DNA of 11,923 bases from a virus (lineage: Duplodnaviria; Heunggongvirae; Uroviricota; Caudoviricetes): IMG/VR virus record IMGVR_UViG_3300035394_000193; one strand, written 5' to 3'. The notes beneath the pieces are model-generated. The model searched no databases and was not told where the DNA came from. It saw only the letters and a list, made by a program, of their open reading frames with translations. The translations under genes were made by a program, and so were the position numbers. Below are positions 1 through 11,923 of this stretch, one piece after another; within the stretch, counting starts at the first letter, position 1; each line of letters opens with the position of its first letter.

Positions 1-1
1 T

Positions 2-958
2 AGCTTAAAAGGTATGGGAACAGAGATTGCAGGAAGTGCTCCTGAATTAATAGACGCCGGATTAGGTGCTTTAGGAGTAAAGAGAGCAGACGCTAATTTA
101 GCACGTGGTGCAGCAGGTTTTGATAAAGGTGCTAGTACAGCATTTAAAGTTGCTATGAAAACAGGAAATCCTTGAGCAATTGCAGCAACAGGAATTGTTG
201 CAGGATTAAGTAAAATTAATATGTATGGTGGAAAAACTCTTAAGAGTTCTGGAACCGATGCTATTAATATGAAAGGTTATACTCCTGGAATGGAAACAGC
301 AGGTAAATTTGCAATAACAGGAAGTGGAAAGAAATATGATAGATATGCAAAACAGAATAAGAATATAGCAAATACTAATTTATTAAAAGGTAATGCTTCT
401 TATGGAGATTCACAAAATCAGCTGGCTGCTTCAAATAGTTATGGTGATATTGCTACTAAAAACTATCAACAATTACAAGGAGGAATTAATCCTAATGTCC
501 TTTCCGCTAAAAAAGGAGGAACTATTAATCCTGCAAAACTTTCTAATATAAAGAAAAAAGCTTTAAGAAATGTTAAGAAAGCCCAAGAAGGAAGTATGGC
601 AATAAATACTACAACTTTAGCTTTAGGTGGTAAAGTTAATATAATTCCTGAAGGCGCTTTACATGCACATAAAAATCATTATGAAGGTGACCTTGCAGAA
701 CAAGTTACATCAAAAGGTATTCCTGTTATTACTTATGAAGAAGGCGATAAAATCGTTCAACATGCAGAAATAGAAAGAAATGAAGTTATATTTCATATAG
801 ACACTACTAAGCAATTAGAAGAATGATTTAAAGAATATAATGATACAGAAGATACTAAAAAGAAAGCAGAATTAGAAATAGAATGTGGTAAATTTTTAGT
901 TGAAGAAATTTTAGAGAATACTTTAGACAAGACTGGACTTTTGGAGGAAGTTAACTAA
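2..958 (+). CDS. Partial (5'-truncated) putative virion cargo/structural protein, at least 318 aa under table 4
   Basis: Open frame from nt 2 to TAA 956-958 when TGA 173 (GNP-W-AIAA) and TGA 824 (LEE-W-FK) are read as Trp. The TAA overlaps the next ATG (TAATG). C-terminal block NIIPEGALHAHKNH..KGIPV..AEIERNEVIF..GKFLVEEILENTLDKTGL resembles a conserved crAss-like phage protein (from recall, not searched). Confidence 0.8.
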
Positions 959-3207
959 TGAAATATATACCTAAATATCAAAGACCTTTTTCTCCTTTAG
1001 TTACAATTCAAGATAATACAAGAACGGTATATCCACAACAAGCTTTAATACAATTACAACAAGGACTTAGGGATAATCAAAAAGAGCAGGATTATCAAAC
1101 AGCAATAAAAACTAAATCTGAAGTTGCTTTTAAGGAAAAGTATAAACAATCACCTCATAGGTATAAATATGATACAGACCCTCAATATAAAGCACAAACT
1201 GATAAGCAAGGAAAAGTATCAGCAAAAGAAAATGGAGCAATAGATTTACCATCTTCTGATTTAAGAAGAAAAGATGTTGTTAATCCTGCAAATATGTGAA
1301 TGTATCCTAACTTAACTGGAGAATCTAATAGACAGGCTACAAATTTTTCTAATGAAGTTATAGGTGCTGCTCTTCCAATCCTATTAATTAATAAAGTGGG
1401 AAAATTGCCAGGAATAACTGATAAAGTTATAAACTCAACATTAGCAGCAGGAAAAAATTTAGTTAATCCCGCCGAACGTTTATTAACTGAACAGGAGTTA
1501 CTAAAATTAAATCAAACATTAGACAAAAAAGGCATTCTTCCACAACAGAAAACTTTTAATTGACCATGAAAAGAACCAATAAGAAAAGCAATAGAACCCT
1601 TTGGTTATGGCAGTGCTCAAGGTGGCATGACAATTACTGGTGGTAAATTTAGTGATTTAAAGGGAGCCATCTTTGGAGGAAAAAATCCAAGTTATGTCAG
1701 TTCTAAGGAATGATTAAAAATTCTTAGTGGATATGATGATGATATAGCAGTGGCTTTTAAAAACTTAAGACAAAAGAAATTATCAGGAACTGAATACGAA
1801 GATGCTATAAATAATTTAATAGAAAGTACTGGACAAAGAAGATCATCAGTAATTAGTGAGCCAAATATTAAAAAGGCTTTAAATAATAGGGATAAATTAA
1901 GAATACGACCAATTGATCCTTTGGCTCCCAAGGAATTTTCTAATACCTCTCCCATAAAATTAAATAATAGGTATACAACTTGAGATATGTATTTGGGAAA
2001 ACCTCAAATTAAACACCCAATGTATACCGTAAGTCCTTTAAGTACTAATAAGAAAACTGTTTATACAATTAAACCAGAATTTACAAATAAAGCTGCAATT
2101 GAAAGAGAATTAAAAGAAAATATTAATTTAGTTGCCAATAAAGATTCTAATTTAGGGAGATGAAATATATTAACTGATAATAGAACTAAGGACTATACAT
2201 TATTAGATTCAGATGCATCTTATTTTGGCACTATGGGTGGATTTAACTGAAAATTTAAACCTTTAGAAAATGGAAATGTACAAGCAATTGCAAATGATAT
2301 ATGAGATTTAAATCCTTATCAGCAATTTAAAATTAAACAAAAATGAGTTCCTCAAGTAATTAAGAATAAAATTGAACCATTAGTACAAAAAATTGAAGTA
2401 GGAAAACTGTTAGGTATAGGAAAACCCTTAGATGTAAGAGTTGGATTTGAATTTGATAAGACTGGAAACATAATTAAACAATTTAAATGTGGAGGAAATA
2501 TGAAATATCAAATAAAATCTAAAACAAAGAAACAAAAACTCCAAGATGGAGCACAAGTTCAATATAATGATGCTATTAAGAATAAAAGACTGATTAAAAA
2601 AGGTCAAACTGGCTTAAAAGTAATATCTGGACCAACAGTATATAGTAGAAATGACCCTGCTTATAAAGCATATCAGGATAGTTTATCTGAATATAATTAT
2701 GGTGTGAAATTTCAACAAGATAATCCTGACTTTGATAGATATTCAATTAATGAATATCTTAATAATCCTTATATTCCATCAATTATTAAAAATAATTTTA
2801 TAAGAAATAAGAATAAACCTATAGGTGTTATGGCAGACCCTAAGTTTAGTCATGTTGGAGCTATATATAAAAAGCCTACTAATCCTATTACATTAGCACA
2901 AGTACCAAAGTTACAACCTAAACTTAATCAATCTTCTAATACCAATCTTTTACAACCAAGACAAACTCCTGAATTATCTTATCCTATTGATAAAAAATTA
3001 CTTAGTTCGAGAGGAGTATATATAAATGCGGGAAATAATGATGCTAATCATCAAGGAGAAGGAATGTACACTATTAATACTTATGATGATGGCAGTTCTG
3101 ATAAAATAAAATCTATTAAAAGAAAATCTTCTGACTTAATTGTTAAAAAACAAATAGGAGGGAAATTACCCGATATAACTAATATACTTGCTCAATGAAA
3201 AAAATAA
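958..3207 (+). CDS. 749-aa modular hypothetical protein (putative virion cargo) under table 4
   Basis: Track ORFs 958-1299, 1300-1563, 1750-1983 and 2500-3198 share one frame. The gaps contain only TGA (1297, 1561, 1567, 1711, 1981, 2161, 2248, 2302, 2344, 3196) and no TAA/TAG until TAA 3205-3207. Start coupled to the upstream stop (TAATG 956-960). Confidence 0.8.
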
Positions 3208-3776
3208 AAATACAAATAGCTGATAAGCAATACACGGTTGAATTAGCTGAATCTGAGGAAGAACAAGAAGAAGGATTACAAGGACGAATTGAATTACAAG
3301 AAGGAACAGGAATGTTATTTATGTTTGATAAAAATGAAGTTCGAGGATTCTGAATGAAAGATACAGAAATTCCTTTAGATATTATCTTTATAGATGATGA
3401 ATTAGAAGTAACAGCAGTTTACGAAGGAAAACCAAATGATATTACTTTATTAGAAGCTGAATGTACTTATGTATTAGAAGTAAATCAAAAATCAGGTATT
3501 AAAGAAGGCGATGAGTTAGACTTTGAACCTGATAATAAACAAATAAAAAAGACAGATAAGATGTTAGTGTTAGATTCTAGTGGAGAAACACAGATGGAAT
3601 TAGATGGCGGTGAGAGAATTTTTTCTCGCAAGAATACTAAAACATTAATTAAATTCGCTAAGAAAGCAGCAACAACAGAAAAGGAGAATGATTATAAAGC
3701 ATTAGGAAAAAGAATGTTTAAATTTTTGCAGGTACAATCAGAAACTCCTGCAGAGTATGTAGAATCCAAAAATTAA
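3195..3776 (+). CDS. DUF192 (COG1430-like) family protein with a C-terminal extension, 193 aa
   Basis: ATG 3195 gives MKKIKIQIADKQYTVELAESEEEQEEGLQGR..GMLFMF..GF-W-MKDTEIPLDIIFID..YVLEVN, matching the DUF192 signature (VElA...GL...GMLF...FWMK.T..PLDiiF...VLE). The W is TGA 3351-3353. Ends at TAA 3774-3776. Confidence 0.9.
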
Positions 3777-3787
3777 TTAAAACAATG
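3774..3787 (+). promoter_or_regulatory. A-rich, SD-less translation initiation region (also upstream of 4146 and 10974)
   Basis: TAATTAAAACA-ATG (3785), TAATAAAAACACAAATAT-ATG (4146) and TAATAAAAAT-ATG (10974) have no AGGAGG. Bacteroidota are known to initiate from A-rich, SD-less regions. Confidence 0.5.
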
Positions 3788-4075
3788 ATTGTAAAAAAAT
3801 TACAAATGGGTGGACCAGCTCCTGAAGCGGCACCTCAAGGTGGTGCACCTGCACCTGAACAAGGCGGACAACCTCAAGGTGGTGGACCAGAAGAACAAAT
3901 TGCTGCAATGGCACAACAGATTATTCAACAATTAGGTCCTGAAGCAGCAGCAATGCTAGCTCAGATTATAATGCAGATGTTACAAGGCGCCGCAGGAGGT
4001 GGAGAAGAAGCTTCACAAGGCGAACCTGTATACGCTAAAAAAGGCGGAAAATTAGTTTTAATAGGCAGAAAATAA
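3785..4075 (+). CDS. Small Gly/Pro/Gln/Ala-rich protein (96 aa), putative small virion cargo protein
   Basis: Intact ORF under either code (no TGA or TGG). N-terminus KKLQMGG, C-terminus GEPVYAKKGGKLV, central short helix. Resembles a small conserved crAss-like protein found before the large cargo genes (recall). Followed by a terminator. Confidence 0.85.
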   Translation: MIVKKLQMGGPAPEAAPQGGAPAPEQGGQPQGGGPEEQIAAMAQQIIQQLGPEAAAMLAQIIMQMLQGAAGGGEEASQGEPVYAKKGGKLVLIGRK

Positions 4076-4084
4076 GCCTACCTC

Positions 4085-4124
4085 TAAAGGGAAGCAGAAT
4101 TATCTGTCTTCCCTTTATTTCTTT
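4085..4124 (+). terminator. Rho-independent terminator
   Basis: TAAAGGGAAG (4085-4094) pairs with CTTCCCTTTA (4108-4117). Inner stem CAGA/TCTG with loop ATTA and a single-T bulge at 4107. Followed by TTTCTTT; lies in the only sizeable intergenic gap. Confidence 0.85.
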
Positions 4125-4145
4125 AAATAATAAAAACACAAATAT

Positions 4146-7100
4146 ATGGCACTAGTAAAAAAATTACAGCCTGGAGGTAATATAGACCAAACTGCATTAA
4201 ATGAAGCATTGAATACAGAATTGGGGTCTTATAACCTAAAGAGCAAAGACGAAAGAAAAGTTAGAGATGCATTAACTAGACTAAGAGATTTTAGTGCAAC
4301 TTCTGGTAATTCTTTTACCGCAGACCAAGTTGCTCAAAAATTTATAATCACAGGACCTGGTAGCAATCAATTTCAAGGAAGTCCTGATGATGTAAAATCA
4401 AATTGATTTACAGGAAAACTTAAAATTAATGATGATCAAGATGCAATGTCAGTTGCTGCTGCTATCTATGCAGGGGCACATAAAAATATACAAGGAAGTA
4501 GTTCTACTACTTCTACTACTCCAACAAAAACTTCAATAAATATCGGAGATTATGATAAATATCTTGTAGATGATATTTATGGAGGACCTGATGTTTTCAG
4601 ACAAGATTTTAGAAAACTTAAAACAAATGATTTAAGGCAAAAAGAGTATTTAACTAATATGAAAGACTATATTGATAAATATCAATTAGGTTGGGATAAA
4701 GATATAGATAAATATGATTATGCTGATAAAGACAAAATAAATGAATTACGTGCAGCTCTTGGTGATGGAAATATTGCTAATTGAGATAAAGTAGTTCCTA
4801 TAGCTCGTAAATTAGGATGAAATCCTAATCATATTCTAGTAAATGATGTAGATTTGGCAACTTATGCAGAAGAAGATGCTAAAACAAAACAAACTAACGA
4901 TGTTGCGCAAGCTAATAAATATTCAACAGATTTACAAGGAAAAGGACTTTTACCAAACATATCCAATCCATTACTTAATGCAGGCTATGTCCCTGTAGAA
5001 AGACTAAATCCTGCAGGATATTCTAATGATCAAATAGAAGCTTTTAATAATTATATTCTTAATAAAAAAGGATTTATGTTTCAAGCTCCCGGAGGACAAC
5101 AAATTGCTATTGACATTCAAGGAAATCCTATTCAATCTAATGGTTCAGAATTTGATCAATTTAATCCTTTAACAGGTAAAGCTTGAGGAGGAGATTATAC
5201 AACTGGATTTCAATATGGCGAAGGAAAATATAAAGCTTCCGATGAAGATAATGACGAAAATGATAGAGGTAGAGGTTTAGATATTCCTCAATTACAAGGT
5301 TGAGGTAGAGCAACAGGTTATTCAAGAAATAGTAAAGATGTAGCTCATGCAAAATTAGGAGAAAATAGAGATTATACAAAATATATTGAATTTAACACTC
5401 CTAAAGGAAAAATCACTTTAACTAAAGATGACAAAGGAGTATATACTTCCTCTACGGGTGAAACATATCCTAAATTATGAATTAAAGGATATAAACCTGA
5501 TTATGATGTTAATATAGAAAATTATGATGCAATTTTAAACGATGTTGACAATCCTTTATCTTCTATACCTACAAATAATGATTATGGTAGTTTAACTGAT
5601 GCTTTAACATCTTTAGCTGAACAAAAACAAGCTATTATTAAAGATGGTACTTATTCTTCTGTGGGAGAAATGCAAAAGTTGGCAGGATATATGAAACATA
5701 TTATAGCCACAGCTAAACCTGGAGAAGATAAAAGAAAAGCCTTAGCAACTTATGCTGAATTAAGAGAAATTTTTAAAAATAATAATATTCCTACTAATAA
5801 ATTGGGCGGAGTAATTAAAGCACAAAAAGGAATGTCTTTTGCAGAATATAATGCAAAATATTCTCCAAAACCAAATACTACTCAAACTACTGCTCCAGGT
5901 AATAAACCGGCTGTAAGTGCGGAAGGGATGCTTAAAAATATGAACACTTTGGATGCTATATCTTTAGCCGGAACAACAGCTTCATTTATTCCTGGAATAG
6001 GTGTTATTGGAGGAGCAGTTAGTACTGTGGCTGATTTAGTAAACGATATTAATAAAGGTAAAAGTTTTGGAGAAACTTCCGTAAATTTAGGAATGAATTT
6101 AGGTTTTACAGCATTAGCTTTTTTTGGTGCGGGAGGATTAAAAGCCTTAAAAGTAGGAGTAGAAGCTGCTAAAATAGGCAAAGCTGCAGATTTTGCTGTT
6201 GATCTTACTACAGCAGGTAAAAAAGCGGAAGCATTAATAAAATTAGCGAAAAAGTCTGAATCTTCTGTAGATTTAGGAACAAAAGCTCTTTTAGAATCTA
6301 CTTTAAAAGTATCAAATATTTCTAAAAGTTTAGGAGGAGAAGGTAGTAAAATATTAAAAGCAGTAGCCAATGCGGATAATGTTGCATCATTAGATGAACC
6401 TACAAAATTAATCTTAAAAAATGCTGGCTATATTGATGATGCTGGAAATGTTCTTAAAAAAGAAGGAACTAAATTAATTCAAGCTGATTTAGGAATTGCT
6501 CATGGTATTCAAAATCAAAATATAACAAAAGTATCTAGAATAGCAAATAATTGAATTAAAGAACCAATAGAAACTACAGGAAAAGCTGTTATAGATAAAA
6601 GTTCTAAATTATTAAATAATAAAACTGTTAGTGGAATAGCTAGAACTGCTTTTATCGGAGGGACTGCTGGAACTGGAGGTTATGGTATTATTAAAGATTA
6701 TAATTCCGCCCCTGAAAATCTTTCTTGAAATGAAAAATTAGGAAGAACTCAAACATCTGACTGAAGTAATTTATTAATGGGGGCATCTACAGCTAGAAAT
6801 ACTCTTAAAGGAAATAGATATAAAAGAGCGCTAGAAAATCAAACAGAGCCTAGTACAGTAAAAGAAGCTGTTCATAAAATTACGTTAGGCGAAACTACAC
6901 ATGAACTTTCAAGTCCTTTAACATCCCTTCCTAAAAATTTTAAAAGTAAAGTTTGAGAAACAAAAGCAGCAGAAACAACACATATTGAACGTGTAAAGAA
7001 AGAATTATCTGAAAAACTTAAAATCTCTGATCCTACCGAAAAAGAAAAAGTTATAAATGATTTTTTTAAAGATAAGAAAATATCTGATCTTAAAAATAGT

Positions 7101-9053
7101 CTTGAACCAAGAGAGGAAGGAGAATTAGTACTTAGAGAATTTGTTAATAATAGATTTAAAGACCAAGCAAGGAGTATAAAAGAATATGAATTAGCTAAAA
7201 AAATAATTGAGCGTGATATTAAAAGTGTTGGAAGATTAAATGCTAGTCCTTGAGGAACTAAAAAGTTTGAAGCTAAGAAAAAAACTTCTAAACCAGCAGA
7301 AGTAACAAAATCTTCTGAAAAACCAAAACAATTCTTGCCACCCCCTACTAAGTCAGGAGTAGTTATACCGCCTCCATCTTTTAAAAAACCCTCTGTAGTT
7401 AAAGTTAATGAACAATTAATTAATAAGGTTAATAAAAAAGCAACCCCAAGAGATAAATCTAAAAAAGGTTGAACAGGAGAAACTCATTGAATGTTAGAAG
7501 GTGGAATTTTAAAATATCAAAATGCCGCACAATCATCAATGGGTCCATTAAATAATCCTACATGAAAAAAAGGATACACTAATACTTTACAAAATACAGG
7601 TGTTGATTATGGTACAGGATTGAGTCTTAAAGCGACACAACAATTTACAGTTCCGTCACAACCTAGAACCGGAAATTATTATGGAGGAGTTACAAATGAA
7701 TTAATTCAAAAGAATTGGAATCCTGAAATTTTAAAAGCTGCTGGTTTAGACCCAACTAATGTAAGTACATGACCTTCTAATACTCCTCAATTATTACAAA
7801 AATATATTGAAACTAGACCTGAATTAATTAGTCAATTAAAAGATCAAACAAGTCCTTCACATAATAAATTTGGTATGGATTGATATTATACAGGATTAAA
7901 ATCAGAAACTCCATCTACTCAAACTACAACAACTACTCCAACAGGAACTCCTGCTGCAGAAACTAAACCTATAGTAATTCCTGCAACTGGGCCAACTACT
8001 AATATTAATAGTAATGTAATTCAAAAACCTGGAATATGAGATTCTTTAAAAGGAACTCTTGATTCTACAGGTATTGCTAATGGTTTAATGTATTTAAATA
8101 CTTTAGGTGCAAATGCATGAATAGGAAATGAACAAAGAAAAGCTATTTCATCCGGACTTTTTCAACTTCCTTATATGCCACATCAATATATAAGAGCTGA
8201 TAAACCTTATTCATTAGCTGCAAATAAACAAGCGGCTGACGTAAATTCTCAAGGTAAAAAAATAGCAGCATCAACATCGGATTTAAATCAAGGAAATGCT
8301 ATTAGATTACAAGCTTTAAAACAAGCAAGCGGAATAATTGAAAAAGGACAAGCACTTGATTGGGAACGATTGGATAAAGTTAGAGAAATGCAATTAAAAA
8401 ACAATGCTTCTGTTGATTCATATAATACTCAAACTCTTGGTAAAAATAGAGGTCTTACGGCAGAAGCAATGCAAAAAATACATTTAACTAATGCAAATCA
8501 ACGTAATGCTCAAAATACAGCAACTAATAATTGATTAACTGCTTGGGATAAAAATTATGGTTTAAATCAATATAAACAAAATATGGCAAAATATTTTGAT
8601 ATGACTAACGACCCTAAATTAAAATCTTTATCTGATGAATACACAGACTTTGCAGGAGAGAAAGGAAAGGCATCTGCACTTGCGACATATAATGCTAATA
8701 AGGCGAATTATGATAAAACTCATATGCCTGGAGGTGTTAATGGAGGAACTCAATACAAACCTTTTGAAGAATCGGATGAATATAAACAATGGCAAACTGA
8801 TATTACTAAAAAATTAGATTATCTTAAATTGCAAATGAAACCTTTAGAATTAGCTCAACAAAAATTAAATCTTGATCAACAAATGTTGTATTGGAGAAAA
8901 GAGGGCGGAAAAATGACAAAGAAAGAGAAAATTGATATTGATAATAATAAATTCAATAATGTTAAGCGATTAAAGGAAACTGAATTAACTTATAAAGCAA
9001 TAATGCATAATAATGAAATGTTACAAAAAGCTTTAATTAAAGTGTTTAAATAA
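4146..9053 (+). CDS. 1635-aa large putative ejection/cargo (trans-envelope) protein under table 4
   Basis: Track ORFs 4146, 4446, 4854, 5661, 8175 and 8583 share one frame. 19 in-frame TGA (4404, 4782, 4818, 5184, 5301, 5478, 6552, 6726, 6762, 6954, 7251, 7470, 7488, 7563, 7770, 7881, 8037, 8118, 8532) and no TAA/TAG until TAA 9051-9053. Contains a Gly/Ala-rich hydrophobic hairpin (about 5955-6150), low-complexity linkers and an N/Q/A-rich helical C-terminal part. Confidence 0.8.
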
Positions 9054-10966
9054 TGGAATATAGAAAAATAAGAAAAATGGAACAGGGGAGTGGATTTGCA
9101 ACATTCACTCCCATTGTTAAAACTGCTCCAGCATCAAGATCTTCAGATGATAGACATTCAAATAGTGATGAAAAATCTCCGGAATCTTCGTCTGTTATAG
9201 ATTCTAAAATGATAGAGCAGCTATATAAATCAGGGGGATTAGTAAATGATGTAAATCAATTAGTATCTGAATTGGTACAAATAGAACAGAGTTCTACAAA
9301 TCCTTTCTTAAGTAATATTAATAGAGGTAGAACATTACAAATTGCGGCTAAAATTAATGAAATTAGTCAAAACAAAGACTACTGAAAAGACGCTATTACT
9401 CGTTCAAAAGAAGCAGGAGGTTTAGGTGAAGTTGCAGTAGATACTGATGGAAGAGTTTATACTAAGACTAAAGATAATAAAATACAAGCTATATCTTTAG
9501 CTGATTATTCTGAAAATAGAGAATCTACTAAACTTTTAAGTGTTCAAGAATTATTATATGAAAGACAATATAATAAATCTTTGACAGGACAAAATGGAGT
9601 ATTTACTATTGCCGATAATGCAATTGGATTAAATAAAATTACAGAACATATAAAATCCTTAGTATCTGCTTTAGGAACTGATAGTACAGAAGATTCAGGA
9701 ATTTATTCTAAGTCTAAATCTCAAGAATTAGCAGCGTCTTTTGGAGGTAAACAACCTACTAAGGAACAAGCATATTCACTGTCCATTCTTAATAGAGTTA
9801 TTAATAGTCCATCTGAGTACTCTCAAGTTAAAACTAAAAATTCAACTGAAAGAGCACATATAGAAAAAGCATTAGGATATATATGAAATACTTTAGGAAA
9901 TCCTGCTCAACAGAAACTTAGAGCAACTGCTGCTTTAAATGGGGTAGCTAGACCTGAACAATTTATTTTAGATATATTAGAAACAAATACGGATGAAAGT
10001 CGAAGTATTGAAGTTTCTCCTGAAACAACAGCAAAAGCAACAGGAAAAGATACAACAGATGATAATTCTAAAAAAATCGCCTTGACTCCTTCAGAATTAT
10101 TTCATAATGATAGATTATACCAGCCGGGAATGACTTATGAAATTAATAATCCAAAAGCAAAAGTAAGTTTAAGAGCTACAGCTACAGGTATTGGACCTTT
10201 ATATAGTTTAACAAAACCAGGAGAAGTATTAGAAGCTGCAGTAGTATCTAGTATTTTTGATAAAAATAATTATTCTTCTATTTTGGACAAATCAAAAGTT
10301 TTTATAGGTGATACTAAAATTGATCCTTTATTACTTTCAGAAGTTGCATTTACAGGAGAAGATGTTGGAAAAGTTTATTTACCTGTTAAATCTGATGGTA
10401 CTCCTGATTTAGGACAAATGGAAAGATTTAATAATGCTTACCAAGTATTTAATATTAACAAAGATACGTGAACTACTCAACAAATTCAAGAATATTTTAG
10501 AAAAGCAGGATTTCCTGGAATCCAAATAAAAGAAAGTAAAACTTCGGATGGAAGTATTACTAAAGTAATTGGAGAAAATGGAAATGTTAAGCCTTTCTTA
10601 GCGGTTCCGATTATTACTAATTCTGCTTCAGATTTATCTAATAATCCATGAATGGTTGAACAAGTAGGTAATCAAAAAGATTCTGCTAAAATGGTAATGA
10701 ATCAAGCGTTCTCTGTTTTAGGAGGAACTCCAAGTAAACCAAAAACAATAAATACAAGTCCTTGAGGGTACCTTTCTTTAGAAACTCCTTATAAAGGCGT
10801 GATGTTTGTAGCATATCGTCCAGAATCTAGTGGTATATTAAGTTCTATGTATGGACATGTTTCTGGCAAAGCCCCAAATGAAACAGATATATATAGAAAT
10901 TTAAACTATAGTGTTACAGGTAATAATCCAATAGGTATCCAAGGATCTGCAGCAGTTTTAAAATAA
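9053..10966 (+). CDS. 637-aa hypothetical protein, putative crAss-like virion cargo protein, under table 4
   Basis: Track ORFs 9053, 9581 and 10082 share one frame, joined through TGA 9383, 9884, 10469, 10649 and 10763. Ends in tandem TAA TAA (10964-10969). Start overlaps the upstream stop (TAATG 9051-9055). Confidence 0.8.
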
Positions 10967-10973
10967 TAAAAAT

Positions 10974-11923
10974 ATGGAAATATTAAAACCAAATGATATA
11001 TTAATAACTACATTGAATAAACCCGAAGCTACTCCTTATGATTTACTTTCGAGTAATATTAATGGATCTAATACATCACTTTTCTCTAAAGATGAATATA
11101 AACAATCAGAATATATTAAAAATACATTTACAGGAAGTGATGGAAAATTTGATGATTTAGCTTTTGACAAAGCTTATAAATTAGCTCAAAATAATTACTA
11201 TCAATTAACTAATAATGAATATTTAAAAGAATTAGATCAAATAGAATACAGTCCATTTGATATTACTCGTCCTAAATTTGCTAAAACTATTAATGTATCC
11301 GCAACTTTAGAAAAAGAATATAATCCATTTGAAGAAAAGAAAGGATGGACAGGAATAAATTCGACTGATGCTAGTAATTTATCTTTACGAGAATTAGCCC
11401 AGCAAGGAAAAATATTTGATCCTATTAATAAAACTTGAAGTGAAAAATCTTTAAATGATTTAAGTTTACTTGATAAAGTATTTGGAGATACTTTAGTTTA
11501 TGCACAATTTGATGAAGATGGTCAACACGTAGATTCTAATGGATTCTTTGTAGATCATAAAAAAGGAGATTGAAAAGTAAATGAAGATGGAAATCTATTT
11601 ATAGAGAAGTTAGGAAATAGAGAAATCTATGGAAAACAAATAGTTAATTCTATGGATACTCTTACTACTGATGGTTCTTTAATAAATAAGTTTGATTTCT
11701 TAGATTCGGATGGACGAGAAAAATCTATTACTGGTACAGTTTTTAAACTTGCTGCTAATATTGCTCCATTTATTATTCCAGAATTTGGAATATTTAAGGG
11801 TATGACATCTATTCCATCATTATATGGTGGCTTAAAAGCTACAATTGGATTAGCTTCATCTCTTCCGACATTTTATAAAGCATTAGAAGGTTTACTTTTA
11901 GGTGATACAAATACTTCATTAAC
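10974..11923 (+). CDS. N-terminus of a large putative crAss-like virion protein (3'-truncated, at least 316 aa)
   Basis: Open to the window end through TGA 11436 and 11571. Motifs KPNDILITTLNKP..F...DGKFDDLAF and HKKGD-W-KVNEDG..E.LG.R..YG.Q...D.LT.DGS..N.FDFLDSDG.EKS resemble the N-terminus of giant crAss-like virion proteins (recall). No RNA polymerase motif within the window. Confidence 0.75.

Follow-up and report, generated by a model that had tools for sequence, protein, structure and literature searches.

The 11,923-nucleotide stretch of phage DNA analyzed here in full (the window; IMG/VR virus record IMGVR_UViG_3300035394_000193) has a guanine plus cytosine (GC) content of 31% and, when TGA is read as a sense codon, contains seven abutting genes, all on the + strand. 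The codon TGA, its translation as tryptophan in these late genes, and the means by which a phage might bring this about are the subjects of this report. The genes are as follows.

2..958, + strand: 3′ part (318 amino acids) of a 409-amino-acid late gene; TGA at 173 and 824, stop TAA
958..3207, + strand: gene of 749 amino acids; TGA at 1297, 1561, 1567, 1711, 1981, 2161, 2248, 2302, 2344 and 3196, no TGG
3195..3776, + strand: DUF192-domain protein of 193 amino acids (Pfam DUF192, E = 9.3e-25); a single TGA at 3351
3785..4075, + strand: Gly/Ala/Gln-rich protein of 96 amino acids, conserved in six related loci (L003-L008, see below); no TGA or TGG
4146..9053, + strand: protein of 1635 amino acids with no Pfam or PHROGs family match; 19 TGA, 6 TGG
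9053..10966, + strand: conserved protein of 637 amino acids; TGA at 9383, 9884, 10469, 10649 and 10763
10974..11921 (3′ end open), + strand: 5′ part (316 codons) of a gene for a giant protein of ~3000 amino acids; TGA at 11436 and 11571, TGG at 11346

The in-frame TGA codons number 2, 10, 1, 0, 19, 5 and 2 in these genes from left to right, 39 altogether, and there are seven TGG codons, six in the gene for the 1635-amino-acid protein and one in the last gene. All six of the complete stops are TAA, and none of the seven genes has an in-frame TAG. These counts exactly reproduce those of a preliminary description made from the sequence alone, which had proposed TGA-to-Trp recoding throughout this late module, and its estimate that about 17 fragments are joined into seven genes is a fair one; under the standard bacterial code (table 11) we count 18 in-frame fragments of at least 60 amino acids on the + strand. 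Frames of 100 codons or more cover 0.63 of that strand under table 11 and 0.995 of it with TGA as sense, but the value changes little with TAG (0.65) or TAA (0.69) as sense. Codons TAA and TAG occur off-frame at a frequency of 9.1%, which gives P ~2e-68 for a stop-free frame of 1635 codons, and an open frame arising by chance is therefore excluded. TGA is a sense codon in the window genes.

An independent public assembly (L059) matches the window over 11,347 bases with no mismatches and reaches 7.9 kilobases (kb) further upstream, where there are four genes with 26 TGA and 7 TGG codons; 24 of these TGA codons lie upstream of the window. The fourth of these genes continues into the window and is the complete version of the first window gene (409 amino acids; L059 7606-8835, identical in the overlap). 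In relatives the late block extends over ~85 kb; the window covers only ~12 kb of such a block.

None of the seven window proteins matched a PHROGs family, and DUF192 is the sole Pfam match among them. The phage is identified as crAss-like by the gene at L059 3360-7601, which encodes a Crassvirus muzzle protein (crAss_MUZ, Pfam E = 9.9e-24, bit score 84, cut-off 27) and which ends ~0.3 kb upstream of the window start in the same phage, the overlap with L059 being identical. When compared with a phage collection that contained no named Zeta genome, the muzzle protein matched only two unannotated gut phages and the Flavobacterium phages Fpv3 and FpV4. A Crass_capsid match (E = 7.8e-12, bit score 44.8, cut-off 27) is also present in the late strand block of a relative, G001. 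Assignment of the phage to the crAss-like phages (Crassvirales) is thus supported by the homology of a muzzle protein in the same phage and of a capsid protein in a relative, and the former bears out the preliminary description, which had pointed to Crassvirales among the phages with reassigned stop codons. The longest contig carrying the 637-amino-acid protein of the window is 168,911 bases.

An alignment-based scan of IMG/VR yielded 13 related loci, and a single-protein scan of viral contigs gave no matches. Six of the loci (L003-L008) were translated with TGA and TGG kept distinct and were aligned to the window proteins, giving 148 aligned residues at the 29 window TGA sites covered by homologues. 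The relatives have TGA at 41 of these, TGG at 22 and Gly at only six, four of which are at one poorly conserved site, 5301. TGG lies opposite a window TGA at eight conserved columns (4404, 4782, 4818, 9383, 9884, 10469, 11436 and 11571). In the gene for the 637-amino-acid protein, for example, position 9383 is TGG in L003, 9884 is TGG in L003 and L005, and 10469 is TGG in L004, L006 and L008. Columns 4404, 4782, 4818 and 5184 in the gene for the 1635-amino-acid protein are either TGA or TGG in the relatives, as are columns 11436 and 11571 in all six of them. At non-conserved TGA columns, L, I, Y, F and M are the usual replacements. The 637-amino-acid protein has 39 database relatives, among which W111 is invariant and W278 nearly so.

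The DUF192 protein provides a further example. The TGA at 3351 is the W of a conserved F-W-M-K motif, as the preliminary description had argued, and it aligns with W in two solved bacterial structures, PDB 3m7a (fWMrnT) and 3pjy (mWMKNT), and with TGG in a standard-code phage, MT835470.1 (L001); five of the six relatives have TGA in this column. Counting TGA, Trp makes up 1.16% of window residues, and without it an implausible 0.18%, whereas Gly is already at 7.9%. A second argument in that description, that TGA 824 aligns with Phe in an internal paralog, did not hold, as no internal match in the window is significant (all E > 0.01) and the resemblance is one of a short motif to the C-terminus of the DUF192 protein. 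The column itself is Y/L/M/L/L in relatives, which fits an aromatic or hydrophobic residue and is compatible with Trp. Judged by these comparisons, none of which presupposes a particular code, TGA encodes Trp and not Gly in the late genes of the window, as first proposed, and table 25 is rejected because of the TGA/TGG exchanges at conserved columns, the DUF192 tryptophan, and the Trp and Gly shares. Gly at the TGA sites, which had been named beforehand as contrary to the proposal, is confined to six of the 148 aligned residues.

The predominance of TGA over TGG needs no special explanation, because its share is like that of other A-ending codons. In the A/G third-position pairs of Lys, Glu, Gln, Leu and Arg, the A-ending share in the window is 0.87–0.93, and the TGA share of Trp codons is 0.85. 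We considered whether avoidance of TAG is itself a signal and rejected this, as six TAA stops out of six are expected from a 90% A-bias, and TAG is still the stop in 10 of 47 late genes of G001. A proposal that the in-frame TGAs lie in weak termination contexts was likewise dropped, there being no significant bias in the base that follows them (p = 0.14).

The related phages vary in genetic code. TGA is sense in L003-L013, TAG is sense in L014 and L015, and L001 uses the standard code. In the more distant L014 and L015 (171- and 165-kb IMG/VR contigs, with 24–26% identity in the 637-amino-acid protein), reading TAG as sense raises coverage from 0.35 to 0.97 and from 0.05 to 0.98, respectively. 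Gene order is kept in the standard-code L001, which has a homologue of the first window gene followed by genes for DUF192, a small protein, and proteins of ~1600, ~620 and ~3000 amino acids.

The distribution of recoding across a whole genome was examined in two relatives, G001 (178 kb) and G002 (213 kb), both rated complete by CheckV, and in both it is block-wise. On the early strand, codes 11 and 4 give equal coverage, there are 230 TGG codons in G001 and 330 in G002, and TGA ends 22 and 15 genes, respectively, with 10 and 12 in ATGA overlaps. Early genes in these two relatives thus need no in-frame TGA and use it as a stop. This is so in spite of a bias to A-ending codons of 0.68–0.89, and the absence of TGA under the same bias therefore suggests that TGA is still a stop when the early genes are read. 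The late strand, which encodes the structural genes, has 246 TGA and 79 TGG codons in G001, and 167 and 151 in G002. The late strand of G001 opens with 12 genes (154.6-166.6 kb, minus strand) that contain 16 TGG codons but no TGA, and then there is an abrupt onset after which nearly every gene has TGA. We note that the TGA-free run includes genes for a PD-(D/E)XK nuclease and for a possible lysin of 520 amino acids that has a peptidoglycan-binding domain.

A transfer RNA (tRNA) with anticodon UCA, which the preliminary description had suggested should be sought elsewhere in the genome, was not found within the window but is present in the relatives, on the late strand and inside the TGA-free leader at its head. 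That of G002 (c30014-30087) is 74 nucleotides long, scores 62.9 bits in Rfam and is regular in form; it shares A1-U72 and G73 with the tRNA-Trp(CCA) of this phage. A1-U72 and G73 are identity elements of bacterial tRNA-Trp. The candidate in G001 (c161242-161337) is weaker. In total there are 25–28 tRNAs in G001 and G002, and the arrays have two other features. One is a tRNA with anticodon CUA, an amber suppressor, in G001 (L046 5198-5272), although TAG ends 10 of the 47 late genes; the same oddity is seen in phage Lera (PMC12386605). The other is an array tRNA with anticodon CCA, 82–84 nucleotides long and with an extended variable arm (G001, L046 6327-6410; G002, L047 7043-7124), which is an unusual form for a tRNA-Trp.

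The explanation we favor, with a probability of about 0.9, is that the window is part of the late block (tail genes, cargo genes next to the muzzle gene, and giant-protein genes) of a crAss-like gut-type phage of ~169 kb, in which UGA is read as Trp in that block and late translation is probably gated by tRNA(UCA). The mechanism is drawn from the complete relatives and the literature. The phage would infect a host with the standard code, and its early strand, having no in-frame TGA and using TGA as a stop, would be translated immediately. Next to be made would be a phage-borne tRNA(UCA) that bears the identity marks of tRNA-Trp, presumably encoded by the phage represented in the window as it is in the relatives. 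Encoded within a TGA-free stretch that heads the late strand, this tRNA would compete with release factor 2, and only thereafter would the TGA-containing late genes be fully translatable, an arrangement that could serve to time their expression. The order is that of a published timing model, in which standard-code early genes are followed by a suppressor tRNA and then by late genes (Borges et al., bioRxiv 10.1101/2021.08.26.457843). The preliminary description had suggested, on the condition that the host uses table 11, that these genes stay untranslatable until tRNA-Trp(UCA) is supplied and release factor 2 is overcome; the early strands and tRNA(UCA) genes of G001 and G002 fit this, and the role in timing is at present a published hypothesis only.

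A more ambitious version is that the late strand begins with a code-change leader, of about 12 TGA-free genes that hold tRNA(UCA), after which TGA use sets in sharply, and that this tRNA alone, with no release factor 1 (RF1) or tryptophanyl-tRNA synthetase (TrpRS), is the master switch for all of the virion genes of this opal-suppressing crAss-like lineage. We regard this as tentative and somewhat doubtful; if true, the strongly recoded genes of the window, such as that for the 1635-amino-acid protein with its 19 TGA codons, would be stringent natural reporters of the tRNA switch.

Several observations weigh against the favored explanation. The evidence for block-wise recoding and for tRNA(UCA) comes from relatives with 35% identity in the 637-amino-acid protein. 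The G001 tRNA(UCA) candidate is atypical, being 96 nucleotides long with a weak D arm and a score (25 bits) below the Rfam cut-off. The possible lysin with a peptidoglycan-binding domain in G001, although beside the boundary, has no TGA, and a strict version of the timing model in which the lysis genes are recoded is therefore not fitted. Searches of five relatives for the RF-1 domain and the TrpRS/tyrosyl-tRNA synthetase (TyrRS) family gave no match, so neither of the two proteins that the preliminary description thought worth seeking was found there. Published metaproteomic validation covers only TAG-to-Gln recoding (PMC9523058), and the TGA-to-Trp reading is supported by sequence comparison. 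Finally, once a suppressor exists, neutral drift would be expected equally well to give TGA usage no different from ordinary codon bias.

Two of the alternatives concern the reading of TGA itself. That the in-frame TGAs are artefacts, arising in pseudogenes, from sequencing errors or in chance frames, has a negligible probability: its one attraction is that table 11 breaks the genes, and against it stand the improbability of the longest frame, the identity of the independent assembly, the occurrence of the proteins on several public contigs, the conservation of TGA positions in relatives and a DUF192 domain that is intact across its TGA. A reading of TGA as Gly, as in table 25 and the phages of Absconditabacteria and Gracilibacteria, or as another residue such as Cys or selenocysteine, is a little less far-fetched but still highly improbable. 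The frames open equally well whichever amino acid TGA specifies, and Gly does appear in six of the 148 aligned residues, albeit with four at the unconserved site 5301. However, TGG is opposite TGA 22 times, including at the eight conserved columns, and the DUF192 residue is W in solved structures and TGG in a standard-code phage. Were TGA not counted as Trp, the Trp content would drop to 0.18%, with Gly already at 7.9%, and at non-conserved columns L, I, Y, F and M are the usual replacements. Thirty-nine selenocysteine sites without any selenoprotein family are implausible.

The other two accept the recoding and differ in what it is for. In one, table 4 is the native code of the host (a Mycoplasmatota-like bacterium, for example) and the phage code merely mirrors it, with no switch or regulation. 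The low GC content and the use of TGA at the rate of other A-ending codons do resemble native code-4 genomes, and the hosts assigned by computational tools to some opal-suppressing Zeta phages are Bacillota (Holdemanella and Faecalibacillus) and not Bacteroidales (PMC12386605); because of these Bacillota calls the identity of the host is unsettled. However, the hosts given in published work have the standard code, and a native code-4 host is very unlikely because the early strands of G001 and G002 use TGG for Trp with TGA stops and ATGA overlaps despite their A-bias, because the relatives carry their own tRNA(UCA), and because sister lineages use TAG recoding or the standard code. A stronger contender, although still an improbable one, is that the recoding has no timing role, and results either from neutral codon capture under AT pressure or from a suppressor that harms host translation or competitors. 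The TGA share of 0.85 is near that predicted from third-position A/G bias, the base after TGA is unbiased, and recoding differs among close relatives, from 52% to 85% TGA, all of which would suit this view, as would the occurrence of a ‘non-functioning’ tRNA(CUA) in G001 and phage Lera; an anti-host role has been proposed by Yutin et al. (PMC7886860). Neutral capture alone would not account for early strands in the relatives that are TGA-free under the same base bias, nor for the sharp onset of TGA after a TGA-free leader that carries tRNA(UCA); both imply that TGA still acts as a stop at the time of early translation.

There are several informative features of the individual genes. The C-terminus of the product of the first gene (2..958) has 57% identity to the gene product preceding DUF192 in the standard-code L001. 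The second gene (958-3207), by contrast, has no homologue in any of the six relatives L003-L008 or in L001, although the protein is present on nine public contigs, where it is called only with TGA as Trp. In the relatives without it, the homologue of the 2..958 gene directly adjoins the DUF192 gene, and by this comparison the 749-amino-acid gene looks like a lineage-specific insertion in a conserved gene order. Its last TGA, at 3196, falls in an ATGA overlap with the DUF192 start codon (ATG at 3195), and reading through it gains only W-K-K before a TAA (3195-3207). From its placement, TGA 3196 may be a fossil of a former TGA stop.

The DUF192 (COG1430) protein is 54–64% identical to its counterparts in TGA-recoded and standard-code relatives, has a C-terminal extension of ~80 amino acids, and is kept within the tail/cargo block in L001 and L003-L008. 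Its position after the muzzle gene makes the 1635-amino-acid product a probable virion, tail or cargo protein. An AlphaFold2 model of the 637-amino-acid protein has a predicted local distance difference test (pLDDT) score of 76.9, and a fold search of the PDB with this model gave no match (best E = 0.04, TM 0.08). The protein starting at 10974 may belong to the giant ejected proteins known from crAss-like phages; its full-length homologues have 3070 amino acids in L003 (11918-21130) and 2967 in L001 (28599-37502), and both contain a superfamily 1 (SF1) helicase AAA_19/AAA_30 domain in mid-protein. We also note a recurrent N-terminal motif of the K-K-L-Q-x-G-G type, in MIVKKLQMGG (3785-3830) and MALVKKLQPGG (4146-4190), and similar K-x-G-G-K strings, both near C-termini and within the large window proteins.

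The closest parallels are with opal-suppressing phages of the Zeta group of crAss-like phages, including phage Lera and the proposed family Echekviridae (PMC12386605). Zeta phages have genomes of 145–192 kb and use TAG, TGA or the standard code according to branch, with recoding mostly in late genes (Yutin et al. 2021, PMC7886860). In phage Lera and other Zeta phages there is opal suppression of structural genes including that for the muzzle protein, with 23–26 tRNAs, among them tRNA-Sup(TCA) and an unused tRNA-Sup(CTA) (PMC12386605). The window phage resembles these in its probable size (~169 kb), its GC content of ~31%, and the reading of TGA as Trp in structural genes, among them the muzzle gene. 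Its relatives resemble them in using TAG or the standard code in some lineages, in carrying tRNA-Sup(TCA), and in some cases an unused tRNA-Sup(CTA), within large tRNA blocks, and in confining recoding to the late part of the genome. The genome size, the variety of codes and the large tRNA block are consistent with membership in the Zeta group but are not exclusive to it. The presence of the 749-amino-acid gene sets the window phage apart from the relatives examined.

There are similarities also to the code-4 clades Jade, Sapphire and Agate (bioRxiv 10.1101/2021.08.26.457843), in which early genes use the standard code, structural genes are recoded, and the gene for a suppressor tRNA lies in a standard-code stretch ahead of the recoded block. 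Two departures are the lack of an RF-1 domain or class Ib synthetase in the five relatives searched, whereas Jade has RF1 and TrpRS in a ‘code change module’, and the lack of TGA in the peptidoglycan-binding protein adjacent to the G001 boundary, which does not fit a strict lysis-timing model. Crass-like phages that read TAG as Gln (code 15; Peters et al. 2022, PMC9523058) belong to the same order and share the block-wise logic and the phage-encoded suppressor tRNA, but they use a different stop codon and amino acid, and the proof there is metaproteomic, whereas the TGA-to-Trp reading is based on sequence comparison. Native table 4 in Mycoplasma and Spiroplasma and their phages likewise has TGA as Trp, far more TGA than TGG, and low GC; however, it is genome-wide and owned by the host, whereas in the relatives described here TGA still ends early genes, and the tRNA(UCA) is supplied by the phage. 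The scarcity of Gly opposite window TGA codons distinguishes the window from table 25 phages.

For annotation, the consequence is that the late block must be translated with TGA as Trp, since table 11 breaks every large virion gene into pieces and forfeits roughly a third of the coding sequence. TGA-to-Trp recoding of late genes is already known for this group of crAss-like phages, and the window raises no new question about their biology; it is one further instance of a documented habit of these phages.

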